The translations under genes and the position numbers were made by a program. Below, piece by piece: positions 56,710 to 64,000 of a DNA stretch of 64,000 nt (the stretch's first letter is position 1; every line of letters starts with the position of its first letter). The notes under the pieces were generated by a model. The model made no database searches and had not been told where the DNA came from. It saw only the letters and a list, made by a program, of their open reading frames with translations. Origin of the DNA: Candidatus Poribacteria bacterium. Lineage in GTDB: Bacteria; Poribacteria; WGA-4E; WGA-3G. The stretch spans positions 19,400 through 83,399 of the forward strand of contig JAGWBV010000003.1 in NCBI GenBank assembly GCA_021295715.1, given 5' to 3'.

Positions 56710-59700
56710 TCAAGAGTTTCTACGGAGATCCAATGTGTACGGATATTCGGCATTTGTTTCTTCCGGTGGAACGACCATCGGACCCGGCGGATTCCCTGCT
56801 GGAGAAAACTCTCCGGTTGATGCCGAAACCGGAGGCGGTTGCATAACGCTCGGCGTATGTCCGTCAGTCCCGAACCGATTCACGCGTCGGGATTCCGCCT
56901 CGTAGGCGTTGACAGGGAAGGTGTCGTAGTGCCGCCCACCCGGATGCGAGACATGATAGGTGCAACCTCCGATTGAACGACCGTTCCACGTGTCAATGAT
57001 GTCAAACACAAGCGGTGAGTGTATACCGATAGTTGGATGCAATGCTGATGGGGGTTGCCATGCACGATAGCGCACTCCACCAACGTATTCCCCATGTGTC
57101 CCTGTATTGTGAAGAATTAAACGACGCCCGTTGCACGTCACAATGTATCGGGAGTCCGTCAATCCAGATACTCTCACCTGAAGCCTTTCAACAGATGAAT
57201 CAACAAAACGTGAGGTACCTGCTCGGGTAACCTCCTCGCCCAACACATGCCACGGTTCAATCGCCATCCTCAATTCGATTTCAATATCTCGTATATTCAC
57301 ACTGCCTAACTTCGGGAAACGGAATTCAAAAAATGGATCCAACCATGCCATCTCAAACGGATAACCAGCCTCTTGCAGTTCGGTAATGACCTCCTGTATA
57401 TCAGCCCGAACGTAGTGATACAGCATGAATCGGTCATGCAATTCTGTCCCCCAGCGCACGAGTTTCCCCTTGTAAGGGGTCTTCCAGAATTTGGCGATTA
57501 ATGCGCGCACTAACAGCATCTGCACAATGCTCATCTGTGCATGCGGTGGCATCTCGAAAGCCCGAAGCTCAAGCAGTCCGAGTCTTCCACTTGCTGAATC
57601 AGGGGAATAGAGTTTATCAATACAGAATTCCGCACGATGCGTATTCCCCGTGAGATCTACCATAAGGTGTCTCAGCAACCTGTCTACCAACCAAGGTGGA
57701 ACATCTTCAGCATCACCGATCATTTCCACAGACGGCATCTGTTCAAAAGCGACCTCAAGTTCATAGAGTTGTTCATCACGTCCTTCGTCCACTCGAGGTG
57801 CCTGACTCGTGGGTCCAATAAATGTACCGGAAAAGAGATAAGACAAACTGGGGTGATGTTGCCAGTGGGTGATAAGACTTCTCAGTAAATCCGGTCGCCT
57901 CAGAAATGGACTATCCGCAGGAGTAGCACCACCAACTACAATATGATTGCCGCCACCGGTTCCCATGTGCCTACCGTCCAACATGAATTTCTCAGCACCA
58001 AGTCCTTCTAACCGCGCTTGTTCGTAAAGGGTCGTGGTATTCTGGACCACTTCCTCCCAATTTTTCGCCGGATGAATGTTCACCTCAACCACGCCTGGAT
58101 CGGGTGTCACGTCTAAGGATTCAATCCGAGAATCATGCGGAATCTCATATCCTTCGAGAATCACCGGCATGTTCAACGCTTCGGCAGTCGCCTCAGTTGC
58201 CTCAAGAAGCTGCAGATAATGCTCTACATGCGTCAAAGGGGGCATAAAAATGTGCAATCGTCCGTCCCGCGGTTCAATGCACAGAGCTGTTTGAAAAATC
58301 GGCGGAAGCGCGCCATCACGATGATTGTGATCGCGTGACTTCTGAGTTTGTGTATCTCTATTTTCAGTTGCAGGTGTGTCTTCCGTGTGGTCTGCGCCCA
58401 ATACCTCCAAACTTTCCTCGCATGGCTCCAGAGGGTCGCGTTCGTAAACTATCTCCTGCTGTTCCTCCGGCACCCACTCTAAAGACTCCAAGGGTAGACG
58501 TAACCCGATAGATGAATCACCGGGGGTTAAGAACATGCGTCCACCCCTAAAACGCCACGAACAACTCTCCCAAACATTAGCTACAAGATCCCAACGGAGC
58601 GGTAGCGCGTACCCGATCGGTTCCCCGAGCGTGTCAGTCTGTAGAAGTTGCGCGAGTCGGTGTCGTTCGGAAGCTTCCTTGAAATCAAATTCAAGCGGAT
58701 CAATGTTGACAGGAAGTCTCTCTTCCGTCCAAAGGAAAAAAAACGCGTCTTCATAAGCGGGGACTATTTGATCGGGCAAGAGTCCCAAGCGTTTGACGAG
58801 GTGGTGCACGAATCTCTCGGCATCTTGAGCACCGAAACCATAGTCTTTATGTGGTTCGGCGAGAAGCTTATCGTTTCGCCAAACGGGGACCCCGTCCTTC
58901 CGCCAAAAACACCCGAACTTCCAACGGGGTAACGGCTCGCCGGGGTACCATTTTCCTTGTCCATAATAGAGCGCGCCACCGGGTCCGAAACTATCGCGCA
59001 AACGCAGTAAAAGTCCTGCTCCCAATTCCCTTTTCCTCGGACTGTCCGCCTCGGTATCCCATTCCTCACCTTCCGTGTCATCAATGGATACAAAAGTAGG
59101 TTCACCGCCCATTGTCAGTCGAATGTCGTTCCGAATTATATCTTCGTCAACCTGCTGTCCGAGGCCATTAATATGAGCCCACTGCGTTTCCGTGTAAGGT
59201 TTTGTCACGCGCGGGTCTTCATGGATACGCTGGACGGTGTTGCTATAGGTAAATTCTGTTTCACACGGATCTGTATAGCCAGTGACGGGTGCCGCACTCA
59301 CCGGATCCGGCACACACGCCAACGGAATATGCCCTTCGCCTGCAAATAAGCCGGACGTAGGATCCAACCCTACCCAGCCTGCACCGGGTGCGTAAACCTC
59401 GCACCAAGCATGTAAATCGGTAAAGTCTTGGGGTGGACCGGCGGGTCCGTCTACAGGTTTTTGATCCGCAACAAGTTGGACGAGGTATCCAGAGACAAAC
59501 CGAGCGGCTAAGCCAAGGTGGCGTAAAATCTGAACGAGCAACCAACCCGTATCCCGGCATGAACCGATCTGCTTTTCTAACGTCTCTTCACAGGATTGGA
59601 CACCCGGTTCCATCCGAATCGTGTACTTTACATCTTTCCATAGGCGTTGGTTAATGTCAACGAGAAAATCATTCGTTTCCTGCTTCGTCCGTGGAACATC

Positions 59701-60096
59701 TTCTAACCAAGCTGTAAGCAGGGGACCATTTTCTTTGATCTCAAGGAAAGGGGCTAATTCCTCTTTGAGCTGCGCGTCGTAAGTGAATGGATAGTGTTCG
59801 GCACTCGTTTCCAGGAAAAAATCGAACGGATTGATGATGGTCATATCCGCAACAAGATCGACTTCAACTGACAAAGCACGCGTGGGTTCCAAGAAAACAA
59901 CACGAGCCTGATAATTACCGAATGGATCCTGCTGCCAGTTAATAAAATGATTCTCAGGTTCGATTCTGAGTGAATACGCTTCAATCGGTGTGCGGCAGTG
60001 GACCGCAGGTCTCAACCGAAAAACGTGTGGAGACAGGTTGACAAGCCGATCATAGCGATACAGAGATTTGTGGTTGATTGCTACATGGATAGCCAT
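56710..60096 (-). CDS. Large transglutaminase-family protein (Bact_transglu_N + transglutaminase core + DUF2126-type C-terminal region)
   Basis: Motifs MAIHVAINHKSLYRYDR, GSCRDTGWLLVQILRHLGLAARFVSGY, LHAWCEV and GLDPTSG, then a conserved-looking extension of about 800 aa; 1128 aa. Confidence 0.85.
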   Translation of the reverse strand: MAIHVAINHKSLYRYDRLVNLSPHVFRLRPAVHCRTPIEAYSLRIEPENHFINWQQDPFGNYQARVVFLEPTRALSVEVDLVADMTIINPFDFFLETSAEHYPFTYDAQLKEELAPFLEIKENGPLLTAWLEDVPRTKQETNDFLVDINQRLWKDVKYTIRMEPGVQSCEETLEKQIGSCRDTGWLLVQILRHLGLAARFVSGYLVQLVADQKPVDGPAGPPQDFTDLHAWCEVYAPGAGWVGLDPTSGLFAGEGHIPLACVPDPVSAAPVTGYTDPCETEFTYSNTVQRIHEDPRVTKPYTETQWAHINGLGQQVDEDIIRNDIRLTMGGEPTFVSIDDTEGEEWDTEADSPRKRELGAGLLLRLRDSFGPGGALYYGQGKWYPGEPLPRWKFGCFWRKDGVPVWRNDKLLAEPHKDYGFGAQDAERFVHHLVKRLGLLPDQIVPAYEDAFFFLWTEERLPVNIDPLEFDFKEASERHRLAQLLQTDTLGEPIGYALPLRWDLVANVWESCSWRFRGGRMFLTPGDSSIGLRLPLESLEWVPEEQQEIVYERDPLEPCEESLEVLGADHTEDTPATENRDTQTQKSRDHNHRDGALPPIFQTALCIEPRDGRLHIFMPPLTHVEHYLQLLEATEATAEALNMPVILEGYEIPHDSRIESLDVTPDPGVVEVNIHPAKNWEEVVQNTTTLYEQARLEGLGAEKFMLDGRHMGTGGGNHIVVGGATPADSPFLRRPDLLRSLITHWQHHPSLSYLFSGTFIGPTSQAPRVDEGRDEQLYELEVAFEQMPSVEMIGDAEDVPPWLVDRLLRHLMVDLTGNTHRAEFCIDKLYSPDSASGRLGLLELRAFEMPPHAQMSIVQMLLVRALIAKFWKTPYKGKLVRWGTELHDRFMLYHYVRADIQEVITELQEAGYPFEMAWLDPFFEFRFPKLGSVNIRDIEIELRMAIEPWHVLGEEVTRAGTSRFVDSSVERLQVRVSGLTDSRYIVTCNGRRLILHNTGTHGEYVGGVRYRAWQPPSALHPTIGIHSPLVFDIIDTWNGRSIGGCTYHVSHPGGRHYDTFPVNAYEAESRRVNRFGTDGHTPSVMQPPPVSASTGEFSPAGNPPGPMVVPPEETNAEYPYTLDLRRNS

Positions 60097-60136
60097 CTTT
60101 TAATTACACCTTGCGGATTTTAATTATACCTTGCGG
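60097..60136. repeat. Two tandem copies of the 20-nt MITE end abutting the start codon of the DUF2126-type gene
   Basis: CTTTTAATTACACCTTGCGG (60097-60116) and ATTTTAATTATACCTTGCGG (60117-60136). Confidence 0.85.
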
Positions 60137-60245
60137 TAAGAATGGCAATCGGCTATCCCCAAGGTAAATTTAACATTCCCCGTCAAATCCCCATGCTTTA
60201 GCTTGCGGGATGTAGACGGCATATAGGTTTACCATTAAAAAACAC

Positions 60246-60274
60246 TTGACATTTCGTCCAAAATATTGTATAAT
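60246..60274 (+). promoter_or_regulatory. Perfect-consensus sigma70 promoter upstream of tnpB
   Basis: TTGACA (60246-60251), 17-nt spacer, TATAAT (60269-60274). Confidence 0.6.
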
Positions 60275-60372
60275 TATAGCATCAGTTTGGCAGACAGTTC
60301 AAGCGTAATCGCAAGATTGCGTGTCTGCCTACCCACTTGAACGGGGTTAAACGAACTGATAACTGATAAACC

Positions 60373-61194
60373 ATGAGAAAAGCCTACAAACATAAACTAC
60401 AAAATCAATCTAACACAATCAGACTTGGCAATATGATTGACGATATGTGGGATATACACGTTCATGTCCTACTATTGGCACGTCGGTATTATCGTATGTT
60501 CGGTAAGAACCTTTCAGCCAATCGCATCAATAAGCATATCACAAAACTCAAAAAGCGAACAAAACCACATTGGGCAGACCTACCAAGTCAAGTTATTCAA
60601 GACGTTGTGTTACGTTACGGCAAATCTCGGGACGCTTTTTTTGATAACATAAAAGCTCGTAAAGCGGGTGAAACAACACGTAAAGTTGGTTTTCCGAAGA
60701 TAAAACCGCGTCAGAAATACAACTCAATGACGTTTACACAAGCAGGCTACACACTTGAAGATAATCGTATCAAAATCAATTGTATAGACACATGGTTCTC
60801 TTTTCATAAACACCGTGAAATTAACGGTGTCATTAAAACGATCACAATCAAACGCGATAGGTGCGGCGACTATTGGATATGCTTTTCGTGCGAGAATGTT
60901 AACGATTCCGAACCCAAAGCCAAGACGGGTAAGAGCGCAGGTTTTGATTACGGAAACAAAACATTCCTAACAAGCGACGAAGGCACTAAGATAGAATCTC
61001 CGCAGTTTTTCAAACAATCTCTCAAGACGTTACGATCTCTCAACAAAGCATTGAGTCGTAAAGTCAAAGGTTCTAACAATTGGTATCGTACGTACCGTGC
61101 TTTAGCACGGCACCACAGAAAAGTTGCCCGACAAAGAGAAGATTGGCAGTGGAAACGTGCTGACGAACTCTGCACAGCGTTCTTGGCTGCCTAA
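60373..61194 (+). CDS. tnpB: TnpB (IS605 OrfB family) N-terminal fragment, 273 aa, lacking RuvC-II/III and the zinc finger
   Basis: Typical TnpB N-terminus MRKAYKHKL.P, LPSQVIQDVVLRYGKSRDAFF, and the RuvC-I motif SAGFDYGNKTFLT. The ORF stops at ...REDWQWKRADELCTAFLAA*, just before the conserved (I/V)xxEDL glutamate. No CxxC pairs follow in any frame. Confidence 0.8.
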   Translation: MRKAYKHKLQNQSNTIRLGNMIDDMWDIHVHVLLLARRYYRMFGKNLSANRINKHITKLKKRTKPHWADLPSQVIQDVVLRYGKSRDAFFDNIKARKAGETTRKVGFPKIKPRQKYNSMTFTQAGYTLEDNRIKINCIDTWFSFHKHREINGVIKTITIKRDRCGDYWICFSCENVNDSEPKAKTGKSAGFDYGNKTFLTSDEGTKIESPQFFKQSLKTLRSLNKALSRKVKGSNNWYRTYRALARHHRKVARQREDWQWKRADELCTAFLAA

Positions 61195-61264
61195 AGTGGA
61201 GCGACAGTCAGACGGTGGACTCTTAGAGAAAACCGCAGTCGCGAGGAAGCACAAGCCCCTACCT

Positions 61265-62254
61265 TCAGGTAGTGGGTACCTTTGACAGGCTGTTCGCGGA
61301 TTCTCCATTGACGGGGCGCAAAGCCAAAAAGGTCTTATGGATATCATCACCGACTAAGTTCAACTTAGTTTGGAAGGCATCAAGAAATTCGTGCAAACCC
61401 GTCGAGAGAATCTGTTTGACTTGAGTATACGCAAATTCAGCACGCAACTGTCCCAAACGCTGCTCTGCCGGATTCGAGAATGTCTCTGAGGGAGTACCAG
61501 AGATGGCGTGTAGGGACTCCTCTGCCTTGGAGAGACAGTAAAGCACAGAGCGCGGGAAATCGCGATCTAAGAGTAGAAACGCCACAACATCGTCGGGTGA
61601 GATAAGCCCATACGTCCGACGATACATTTCAAAGCCACTGGCGGAATGGAGCAGCGCGCCCCACTGAATATCGTCAAATGGCGTGTTCACATCCCAGATA
61701 GATGGCAGTAAAATAAAGTATTTGACATCAACGATTCTTGATGTTTTATCAGCGCGTTCGATAAGACGTCCCAACTGGCTGAAATGCCACGCTTCGCTAT
61801 GTGACATGATGTTATCTGTCAGTCCCATGAAGAGGTGGGAGGCGAGTTTGATTTCTCGAAAGAATTCATGCGGTTCATCCATTGCCCACTGTTCGGAGGT
61901 GTTTGCCACTAATAAGTAGGCATCATTTAACTGTTCCCACATCTCTGATGAGATGTTTTCGCGTACCGACCGGGCATTTTCACGTCCAGCTCGCAGACAC
62001 GAGACAATCGAATTCGGATTTTCAGCGTCGAATGCCAAAAACCGAATTACCGCCTCGCGTGATGATTCCCCGTATCGCTCAGCGAATACCTCATCATCAC
62101 CTGTCGTAGCAACCAACGGTTCCCACTGCGTCTGCATATCGGCTGGTGCATCAAGAATCAGTTGCAAGTTAACATCCACAAAACGGGCAACGTTTTCAGC
62201 ACGTTCTATGTAGCGACTCATCCAGTAAATTGATTCTGCAACGCGACTTAGCAT
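61265..62254 (-). CDS. Alpha-E domain protein (DUF403-type)
   Basis: MLSRVAESIYWMSRYIERAENVARF... and LGRLIERADKTSRI. It is 329 aa and lies 9 nt downstream of the ATP-grasp gene. Confidence 0.85.
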   Translation of the reverse strand: MLSRVAESIYWMSRYIERAENVARFVDVNLQLILDAPADMQTQWEPLVATTGDDEVFAERYGESSREAVIRFLAFDAENPNSIVSCLRAGRENARSVRENISSEMWEQLNDAYLLVANTSEQWAMDEPHEFFREIKLASHLFMGLTDNIMSHSEAWHFSQLGRLIERADKTSRIVDVKYFILLPSIWDVNTPFDDIQWGALLHSASGFEMYRRTYGLISPDDVVAFLLLDRDFPRSVLYCLSKAEESLHAISGTPSETFSNPAEQRLGQLRAEFAYTQVKQILSTGLHEFLDAFQTKLNLVGDDIHKTFLALRPVNGESANSLSKVPTT

Positions 62255-63706: not shown

Positions 63707-64000
63707 TGCAATGAGCCTCCCTACCTCGCACTGTCAAGAATTCAGTGATTTCGCAGCGAGATGCAAAAATACTAAGGACTACGGGTTGCGGATCACCTAA
63801 GCCGTTGTGTAAAACCTGCCAAAACCTCAAGAACCTATCAAAACCTATAGGTCTTTGAGTTTGTGTCTACTTCCTGCTTCTTCGTTTCGTGCCTCTCAAA
63901 CAAGGTCTTACTGAAACTCCACAGGCGTTTTACGTCTCCTCGCAACTCGTGGCGACAGTTAAAGGTCAAGCGGGACACAGGTTGATAGCCGCGTTGAGGT

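Follow-up and report, generated by a model that had tools for sequence, protein, structure and literature searches.

The locus described here occupies positions 60175 to 61286 of the window (the whole 64,000-nucleotide stretch of DNA analyzed) and is one copy of a tnpB-only mobile element of IS200/IS605 type whose family has expanded massively in the sponge symbionts Candidatus Poribacteria. It is very probably a decayed or non-autonomous IS200/IS605-family derivative carrying an internal deletion, IS1341-like and related to the ISDra2 TnpB. An earlier note, made from the letters alone, had named an internally deleted IS200/IS605 element as the simplest reading, and this is what the family comparison returned: when aligned with full-length paralogues of 84% identity, the copy lacks one clean 291-bp piece, and both ends of the element are intact. 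Because the promoter and the folded flanks proved to be ordinary across the element family, the copy is most likely a crippled transposon rather than a new RNA-guided regulator.

Boundaries of the element and the deletion within tnpB

The features that define the element and its coding sequence are as follows.

60170-60174, + strand: target-site pentanucleotide TTAAC (a TAM-like motif), host DNA directly 5' of the left end
60175-60372, + strand: left end (LE), reaching from the element boundary up to the start codon of tnpB; homology to many other copies, the paralogue C117 among them, begins here
60180-60219, + strand: LE subterminal imperfect palindrome; single-stranded DNA fold of -9.4 kcal/mol, z -2.4
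60373-61194, + strand: tnpB remnant ORF of 273 aa, covering WED/REC and the beginning of RuvC, D192 included; identified by an OrfB_IS605 match and by alignment to full-length relatives
61181-61182, + strand: deletion junction GCGTT/CTTGGCTGCC; 291 bp (codons 271-367) absent relative to all full-length relatives

We defined both boundaries and the target motif from ~40 copies. Family copies carry TTA(A/G)C (rarely TTGAC or TTTAC) 5' of the LE, with upstream sequence that is unrelated between copies, and the right end (RE) stops at ...TGAC in every copy, here at ...TTTGAC at position 61286. Both ends of the present copy are intact and bounded exactly like those of its mobile relatives. Each carries a subterminal imperfect palindrome, inverted repeats are lacking, and the element sits 3' of a short conserved motif. 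The LE palindrome (CCCCGTCAAATCCCC...), which is conserved in the family, is by analogy the presumed binding hairpin of the Y1 transposase TnpA. No tnpA is present within the element; a single Y1 transposase gene (PF01797, 131.9 bits; C21) lies elsewhere in the genome, and a search near it turned up neither the family LE nor the RE-core motif, but only the 9-nt RE-end motif with one mismatch. Genome-wide counts of short RE-core and leader motifs with mismatches were at the estimated chance level and were not used.

The 273-aa ORF matches PF01385 (Pfam OrfB_IS605) over residues 173-266 (6.9e-17) and shares 84-89% amino acid identity with full-length family members. By blastn, window positions 60170-61181 correspond to 44134-43122 of C117, and positions 61182-61287 to 42830-42725, i.e., a 291-bp gap at a single point relative to this 370-aa paralogue (84% nucleotide identity), which is likewise seen relative to C47. 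The same split point recurred in every match across 24 congeners, and the junction is unique within the genome. The truncation is not a premature stop: an internal deletion joins the upstream part to the original 3' end, of which the final three codons (LAA) and the stop remain, so that the protein reads ...ELCTAF/LAA-stop. The deletion is in frame, which by chance is expected in one case out of three, and its breakpoints lie between the weakly similar sequences CAGCGTT and CAGGCTT.

Of the functional residues of TnpB, the deletion took the glutamate of RuvC together with its third aspartate, as well as the complete set of four zinc-finger cysteines. As a full-length relative aligns to residues 31-374 of the ISDra2 TnpB (E 2.5e-45), E276, Cys327/330/346/349, and D356 can be placed inside the deleted segment. 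The earlier note had correctly read that the ORF retains the N-terminal part and the RuvC-I aspartate of GFDYG (D192) and ends short of the conserved glutamate, the homology ending at F270, six residues before E276. D192 is the sole catalytic residue left, two of the three RuvC residues being gone, and the C-terminal zinc-finger domain PF07282, present in relatives, is absent from this copy. Since the D-E-D triad is incomplete and the zinc finger is gone, the copy is a defective rather than an active family member. The note was also right that zinc finger and RuvC-III are missing downstream, as the lost 291 bp had no significant match elsewhere in the 64-kb window (blastn). The alternative frame that it had seen open is indeed open, here over 61124-61285, a stop-free run whose length is without significance.

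The genome is a metagenome-assembled genome (MAG) of 175 contigs with ~38 tnpB-like sequences, and dozens of related repeats of this kind might in principle produce such a deletion as a mis-join between tnpB copies. However, the same junction and flanks occur on at least six contigs from separate assemblies, up to 471 kb in length, which differ at no more than four positions over 7.6 kb, and the flanking single-copy genes are collinear with those of relatives. We consider an assembly artefact extremely improbable.

Promoter and folded RNAs at both ends

Upstream of the remnant ORF, we identified a promoter and a structured leader; downstream of the junction lies a second structured RNA that overlaps a host gene.

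60246-60274, + strand: tnpB promoter TTGACA-17-TATAAT (TTGACA 60246-51, TATAAT 60269-74), 12/12 match
60281-60372, + strand: pseudoknotted 5' leader RNA, from covariation in alignment A3; MFE -31.5 kcal/mol, z -3.9
60281-87, + strand: leader P0, 5' strand, closable by either heptamer
60289-96/60322-29, + strand: leader P1, a covarying stem
60304-10/60315-21, + strand: leader P2, from the leader model on A3
60297-303/60336-42, + strand: leader pseudoknot, with compensatory changes in 6 of 7 pairs
60332-34/60344-46, + strand: leader P4, from the leader model on A3
60354-60 and 60361-67, + strand: two tandem heptamers AACTGAT, each able to close P0
61182-61286, + strand: 3' guide-RNA-like (omega-RNA) scaffold, identical with the RE; covariation on alignment A2, 91.5% identical to C117
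61196-98/61250-52, 61201-05/61238-42, 61214-16/61232-34, and 61220-22/61226-28, + strand: scaffold helices, from A2
61256-63/61268-76, + strand: scaffold terminal hairpin, the last scaffold helix, with compensatory changes
61287-61302, + strand: candidate guide (flank) AGGCTGTTCGCGGATT, in the Alpha-E 3' end; the flanks of the copies diverge from this base
61265-62254, - strand: Alpha-E gene (gene call), its 3' end overlapping the element right end

The perfect promoter that had been noted at 60246-60274 was borne out by its 12/12 score, and an identical one precedes eight other family copies, with a near-consensus version at the same position in most others. The leader stem and pseudoknot proposed from the single sequence likewise proved real. 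Across A3, 95% of the cells are paired, compared with 25-41% when the partner strand is slid, and compensatory changes occur in 20 of 32 pairs, a level reached by 0 of 500 shuffles. One leader pair carries a coordinated change that is preserved in both alternative heptamers, and one of the possible closing helices extends over the bases immediately preceding the ATG; the leader may control TnpB translation. Structured 5' untranslated regions (UTRs) are known from IS transposase mRNAs (e.g., the leader stem-loop of IS200), and the Poribacteria leader resembles them as a fold that abuts the start codon, but it differs in its kissing-loop or pseudoknot with two interchangeable heptamers. Neither Rfam 15 nor a full-text literature search returned a match to the leader, and a leader with two alternative closing heptamers is apparently undescribed.

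At the other end, the family scaffold consists of six covarying helices over ~110 nt that overlap the end of tnpB and stop at the right end. Covariation on A2 was pronounced, with 98.6% of cells paired versus 33-41% upon sliding and with compensatory changes in 9 of 28 pairs. The hairpin that the note had pointed out (61259-63/61268-72) forms part of this structure, 18 compensatory cells falling within its helix. In the present copy, the first helix has kept its 3' arm (61187-92) and lost its 5' partner to the deletion, while helices 2 to 6 are intact. Judged from its sequence and pairing, the 3' scaffold is guide-RNA-like, with a candidate omega-RNA role. An Rfam 15 search (E<=1) of the locus and of the full-length paralogue detected no omega-RNA or IS605 RNA family and gave only two chance snoRNA-like matches, both outside the element. 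Third-codon-position conservation increases only across the last 10-30 codons of the gene. Further helices predicted by RNAalifold upstream in the ORF (A2 columns 23-122) showed compensatory change in only one cell of one pair and were dropped.

An RNA of this kind could be of use without an active protein encoded beside it: the 3' RNA, with the Alpha-E flank as its guide, might be used in trans by a full-length paralogous TnpB so as to retain the insertion, homing acting against excision, or the protein fragment might titrate guide RNAs and so dampen TnpB activity amid the ~38 tnpB-like sequences. In favor of this, the RE scaffold is 91.5% identical to that of C117, above the 84% of the ORF, with its helices 2 to 6 intact, in a genome that has many tnpB-like sequences along with a single Y1 transposase gene. 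Yet helix 1 has lost its 5' arm, and high scaffold conservation is a property of the family that would be expected in any recently inactivated copy. Furthermore, the deletion form is single-copy and so gives no sign of amplification as a mini-element. We regard such a role in RNA supply or modulation as unlikely.

The position of the right end also fixes that of the candidate guide. As the element ends at 61286, the guide or flank starts at 61287, not at ~61273 as earlier supposed. The only genome match with at most one mismatch in 16 is its own site, the sole other match has two mismatches in 16 and lacks a TAM, and where the element is inserted, the right end occupies the position of the TAM. 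A guide-target search, as the earlier note had proposed, found the guide only at its own insertion flank and no second target.

Distribution, selection, and comparison with domesticated TnpB proteins

A search for relatives retrieved 994 homologues (E<1e-20), nearly all of 370 aa. The deletion form was found in none of them, nor among 24+40 congeners, the nearest relatives being all full-length; sporadic truncated homologues each have a different lesion, with two other internal deletions (P0111 and P0107). The exact protein occurs at one locus only, on six contigs that are >99.9% identical and represent one near-clonal population, and the allele is present in all six population assemblies that carry the locus. 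No conserved orthologue clade and no conserved synteny of the deletion form were found among the relatives compared.

The element lies in an ATP-grasp/Alpha-E/transglutaminase operon, at the Alpha-E/DUF2126 junction. Its right end (61265-61286) supplies the last six codons of Alpha-E, part of the preceding codon, and the stop codon, which, as read from the sequence, falls within the RE hairpin loop. None of the four nearest species examined (G014, G024, G006, and G010) has an insertion here; in G006, the empty site has the sequence GGTAAATTTAA and adjoins the Alpha-E 3' end directly.

Beyond the deletion, nothing about the copy suggests decay: the promoter is perfect, all leader and right-end helices are intact, and only three private changes fall at columns that are >=97% conserved (0-6 in intact copies). 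The median pairwise dN/dS of the remnant is 0.122, mid-range for intact copies at 0.10-0.16 (Nei-Gojobori pairwise estimates, which cannot date the deletion). The dN/dS check that the earlier note had suggested is therefore non-discriminating, as a value equal to that of intact copies would follow from a recent deletion no less than from selection, and the undecayed look of the copy is equally expected under recent deletion. The note had held that near-identical full-length copies would mark a recent deletion derivative; full-length copies exist, at only ~84% identity.

These data bear directly on the reading that drew attention to the locus, namely an exapted nuclease-dead TnpB akin to the TldR proteins, in which the 273-aa protein and the 3' RNA, guided by the 16-20 nt after 61286, would act on transcription, e.g., of the operon that holds the insertion. 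The likeness is real: as in TldRs, a TnpB-derived protein has its RuvC active site destroyed and its C-terminal part shortened, with a scaffold encoded beside the gene. Here, the nuclease center was lost yet the reading frame, the promoter, the leader, and most of the 3' scaffold were kept, dN/dS is not raised, all six assemblies carry the allele, and the guide lies within an operon gene. The presence of the allele in all assemblies carries no weight, however, because these assemblies are >99.9% identical, and the promoter, leader, and terminal hairpin that had been taken as hints of exaptation are all family-wide.

TldRs have lost identifiable transposon ends (10.1101/2023.11.30.569447), fall into conserved clades associated with specific host genes, have guides that match host promoters, and keep the overall RuvC architecture (10.1101/2023.11.30.569447, 10.64898/2026.09.22.753285). 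In contrast, the present copy has both ends intact, is confined to one locus in one population with no clade around it, and has a guide that is the insertion flank in the Alpha-E 3' end. Far more of RuvC was removed than in described TldRs, about half of it, as 97 of 370 residues are gone from before the glutamate onward, including the conserved block that follows it. In the structure of the Efa1 TldR, conserved aromatic residues at 307 and 311 stack against the heteroduplex, and removing a shorter C-terminal stretch made this protein precipitate (10.64898/2026.09.22.753285). From the alignment, the TldR-like overall fold and the RNA/heteroduplex-binding surface of RuvC appear not to be retained in this copy, and the first scaffold helix is broken. 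Taken with the retained ends, the lack of an orthologue clade, and a guide that is merely the insertion flank, this makes an RNA-guided transcription factor, as the earlier note had envisaged, a very improbable reading.

The crippled-transposon reading, in turn, finds close counterparts among known mobile elements. Full-length relatives share the D-E-D triad and the CxxC...CxxC zinc finger with the ISDra2 TnpB and the IS200/IS605 tnpB elements (PDB 8BF8, 8EXA, and 8H1J), and the family is ISDra2-like in its subterminal hairpins, its insertion 3' of a pentanucleotide, and its structured 3' RNA, which overlaps the stop of the gene and extends to the right end. Relative to ISDra2, the present copy lacks codons 271-367 (with the glutamate, zinc finger, and third aspartate), whereas the Poribacteria family as a whole differs in having no adjacent tnpA, no ISDra2 C-terminal tail, and a pseudoknotted 5' leader. 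Non-autonomous IS200/IS605 derivatives such as PATE and MITE-like elements keep both ends, have lost their coding capacity, and occur in multiple copies. An internal deletion with both ends kept resembles these, and the family has other cases (P0111 and P0107), but here a 273-codon ORF remains and the derivative is single-copy, not multiplied.

Proposed history and significance

We propose that a full-length element of ~1.4 kb inserted 3' of TTAAC at the extreme 3' end of Alpha-E, after the species had split from its nearest sampled relatives, and that a single 291-bp deletion then took codons 271-367 together with the 5' arm of the first scaffold helix. What is left is the unaltered family design: the LE hairpin, the strong promoter, the leader, the 270 N-terminal codons, and the RE scaffold. 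The remnant is probably still transcribed. Having lost half of the RNase-H fold, the 273-aa protein would be unable to cut DNA and is unlikely to hold a guide RNA and DNA heteroduplex properly, and the copy has presumably lost the ability to home on its own. Since its two ends are intact, a TnpA acting in trans may still mobilize it, and its 3' RNA might serve a paralogous TnpB. Were the WED-REC-half-RuvC fragment and its scaffold nonetheless under selection as a cleavage-incompetent RNA-guided binder or a TnpB modulator, which we hold to be very improbable, they would be a case of TnpB domestication at a very early stage, while still embedded in the transposon.

The locus serves mostly as a calibration case: a shortened TnpB flanked by folded sequence and preceded by a perfect promoter resembles a candidate RNA-guided regulator, and family comparison showed each suggestive feature to be inherited and found none of the marks of domestication (loss of the ends, a conserved clade, and a guide matching a promoter) in this copy. 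For the Poribacteria tnpB family of hundreds of copies, the comparison also fixes the element boundaries exactly, establishes TTA(A/G)C as the target motif, and adds two structured RNAs, a 3' guide-RNA-like scaffold of ~110 nt backed by covariation and a pseudoknotted 5' leader with alternative heptamers.

The internal deletion in the tnpB element

The IS200/IS605-type tnpB element at 60175-61286 is very likely nothing unusual: a tnpB-only element of a kind very abundant in Poribacteria, from which an internal piece was deleted, probably recently. Its remnant ORF lies on the opposite strand to its two neighbours, inside a minus-strand gene cluster in which a gene for a circularly permuted ATP-grasp protein comes next after the Alpha-E gene.

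Features of the tnpB remnant and its neighbourhood
56710-60096, minus strand: DUF2126/transglutaminase gene, one flank of the remnant
60246-60274, plus strand: tnpB promoter, TTGACA-17-TATAAT, a 12/12 match
60373-61194, plus strand: tnpB remnant ORF, 273 aa, Pfam OrfB_IS605 at residues 173-266 (6.9e-17)
61265-62254, minus strand: Alpha-E gene, the other flank

The genome holds ~38 tnpB-like matches, full-length copies among them; the nearest, on contig C117, is 84% identical rather than near-identical, as an earlier note had expected of a recent deletion, and encodes a complete protein of 370 aa in which CFETLNL, CSDC...CPEC and HDRDVNAAINI are all present. By blastn and MAFFT, window 60170-61181 corresponds to C117 44134-43122 and window 61182-61287 to C117 42830-42725 (91.5% identity), a deletion of exactly 291 bp (97 codons) relative to C117, and an identical gap appears on alignment to the copy on contig C47. 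The junction, GCGTT joined to CTTGGCTGCC, occurs once in the genome, and the protein ends in ...ELCTAF followed across the junction by LAA, so that the gene's own final three codons and its stop survive, as befits the internally deleted IS200/IS605 element that the note had proposed. CAGCGTT and CAGGCTT, the strings in which the breakpoints fall, resemble each other weakly, which suggests that slippage or microhomology may lie behind the deletion; the deleted segment has no significant match elsewhere within the window. Residues 31-374 of ISDra2 TnpB (8BF8/8EXA/8H1J) can be aligned with the full-length relative (E 2.5e-45). Read against the ISDra2 catalytic triad, D191/E278/D361, the triad of the family falls at D192/E276/D356 and its zinc ligands are C327/C330/C346/C349; E276, D356 and all four cysteines lie inside the deleted segment, and only D192 lies outside it.

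The C47 copy (L003, G000:C47:16231-17419) belongs to the family as well and has decayed in another way: a sister at 83% nucleotide identity, it has the 291-bp segment, three stop codons in frame, a small deletion, and unrelated sequence in place of its left end and leader. Another tnpB, this one from a different subfamily (~29% amino acid identity; window 63966-64000 and beyond, G000:C34:83692-84096, minus strand; 410-aa product with HTH_OrfB_IS605, OrfB_IS605 and Cas12f1-like_TNB) begins just beyond the ATP-grasp gene and extends off the window, so the operon has a tnpB element on either side. Directly adjoining the DUF2126 start codon is a ~45 bp module (60093-60137) of two tandem units, CCGCAAGGT[A/G]TAATTAAAA on the minus strand, with ~45 further genome sites at 84-92% identity; it resembles a promoter/ribosome-binding-site cassette scattered through the genome, or else the end of a MITE.

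Element ends, candidate guide and distribution

Boundaries were set by anchoring ~40 copies on conserved end motifs. On the left, unrelated DNA runs up to TTA(A/G)C (rarely TTGAC or TTTAC) and is followed by ACTCCCCGTCAAA...; on the right, copies finish ...GTGGGTACC(W)(T)TGAC, beyond which the flanks diverge. TTAAC at 60170-60174 is accordingly host DNA, and the left boundary is confirmed by an empty site in the relative G006, where ...CAAGGTAAATTTAAA is joined straight to the Alpha-E 3' end. The right boundary puts the start of the candidate guide at 61287 (AGGCTGTTCGCGGATT...), ~14 nt later than the position of about 61273 proposed before. A mismatch-tolerant search of the genome for guide matches gave no second target, the best other match having 2 mismatches in 16 and no adjoining TTA(A/G)C motif.

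The insertion swapped out the last few Alpha-E codons: the transposon right end (61265-61286, minus strand) supplies the gene's six terminal codons and its stop, the latter being located, as read from the sequence, within the loop of the hairpin at that end. The pre-insertion tail was presumably different, the host protein having been re-tailed with its Pfam domain not truncated.

The tnpB family is enormous in the sponge-symbiotic Candidatus Poribacteria: the analysis turned up 220 confirmed loci, with dozens in single genomes. The exact 273-aa protein occurs on five contigs, with one single-residue variant besides, all at the window locus and with ≤4 differences over 7.6 kb. These contigs therefore represent one near-clonal population, and the repeated recovery of the same locus makes it scarcely credible that the truncated form is an assembly artefact. 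The deletion form was absent from 24 congeneric species, in which every element match splits at the junction. The Alpha-E/DUF2126 spacer is empty in 4/4 relatives examined, the closest included (Alpha-E genes 82-89% identical to the window's), so the insertion is lineage-specific. In the closest relative (L117, G014:C1, ~1330-1500), a ~50-nt unit (CCTTAAATCCGCCTGCGCCGCTGTTGCAGGCTACAGG...) is tandemly duplicated between Alpha-E and the DUF2126-side DNA, in the spacer where the tnpB element would be. The 994 homologues at E<1e-20 are almost all 370 aa and include no recurrent 273-aa form; ~10% of the top matches are shorter, each with a different lesion (frameshifts, contig ends, or internal deletions, in frame in P0111 and out of frame in P0107), and decay by assorted lesions is thus common.

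Selection and comparison with TldRs

Pairwise Nei-Gojobori dN/dS over 269 shared codons, for the window copy against 65 intact copies, gave a median of 0.122, mid-range of the intact copies' own medians (0.10-0.16). Private substitutions at ≥97% conserved columns number 3 in the window copy (I32V, V75I, L262R) versus 0-6 in intact copies, and together these values indicate no relaxation. With dS ~0.47 to the nearest known relative, and >99.9% identity among the only alleles that share the deletion, the signal reflects pre-deletion history at least as much as post-deletion history, and the absence of relaxation fits a recent deletion and a selected fragment alike. That the copy represents a very early stage of TnpB domestication, with which this signal would be compatible, is highly improbable.

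The nuclease-dead, RNA-guided regulator raised by the earlier note was judged against known TldRs. Four properties define TldRs, which lack identifiable transposon ends, arose as clades tied to particular host genes, carry guides that match host promoters, and retain the TnpB fold and RNA-binding surface (10.1101/2023.11.30.569447). In the TldR structure the gRNA runs along RuvC and WED, conserved RuvC aromatics at 307/311 stack on the heteroduplex, and removal of even the C-terminal tail precipitated the protein (10.64898/2026.09.22.753285). The window copy, in contrast, retains both ends, belongs to no clade, has an insertion flank as its guide and is missing the whole stretch that begins six residues ahead of the glutamate. 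It shares with TldRs only a dead active site, and we therefore do not class it as one.

Conserved RNA structures of the family

The positions noted earlier for the leader stems and downstream hairpin are correct. That hairpin is the final helix of a six-helix, ~113-nt RNA that runs from 18 nt ahead of the stop codon to the right end. Its cells are paired in 98.6% of cases versus 33-41% when slid, and 9/28 pairs are compensatory. The hairpin stem reads CTACC/GGTAG in the window and CACGC/GCGTG in C117. For the first helix, GGGCAG/CTGCCT, support comes from 7 copies with paired synonymous changes; the deletion's 3' breakpoint falls in the loop of this helix, so the window copy has lost the 5' arm, with helices 2-6 intact. 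Position and size are as expected for a TnpB omega-RNA scaffold, a putative guide RNA. For the window copy's RNA or protein fragment, a role in trans is quite improbable.

Subfamilies with protein identities of only 38-55% share a ~80-nt scaffold core (GTGGAGCGACAG...GGGT) at 78-85% identity (G000:C25:2255-2336; C38:10149-10230; C44:59453-59535). Upstream of the C25 core, 230 nt are free of tnpB-coding sequence, so this core may be a solo scaffold or mini-element.

The perfect promoter recurs in 8 other family copies, and most others have a near-consensus one at the same position, ~100 nt 5' of the ATG. The leader stem and pseudoknot hold in an alignment of 25 sequences, including subfamilies with only 28-47% protein identity: helix P1, inner hairpin P2, outer helix P0, and a pseudoknot in which the P1/P2 junction pairs with the loop of a hairpin further downstream. 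Leader cells are paired in 95% of cases versus 25-41% with partners slid, compensatory changes occur in 20/32 pairs (6/7 in the pseudoknot), and 0/500 shuffles reach any of five measures; Rfam holds no match. The structure (window 60281-60372) recurs family-wide, at loci L002, L033-L109, L132, L135 and L138. On sequence comparison, then, the promoter, leader and terminal hairpin of the window copy are family features. Two tandem heptamers, of which the second lies immediately before the start codon, are equally good partners for the P0 5' strand, which suggests that alternative conformers may gate translation; in the window copy, a P0 G-C pair has become U-A through a triple coordinated change in the 5' strand and both heptamers. 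This pseudoknotted leader with two alternative closing heptamers, a property of the family, is the most interesting by-product of the analysis.
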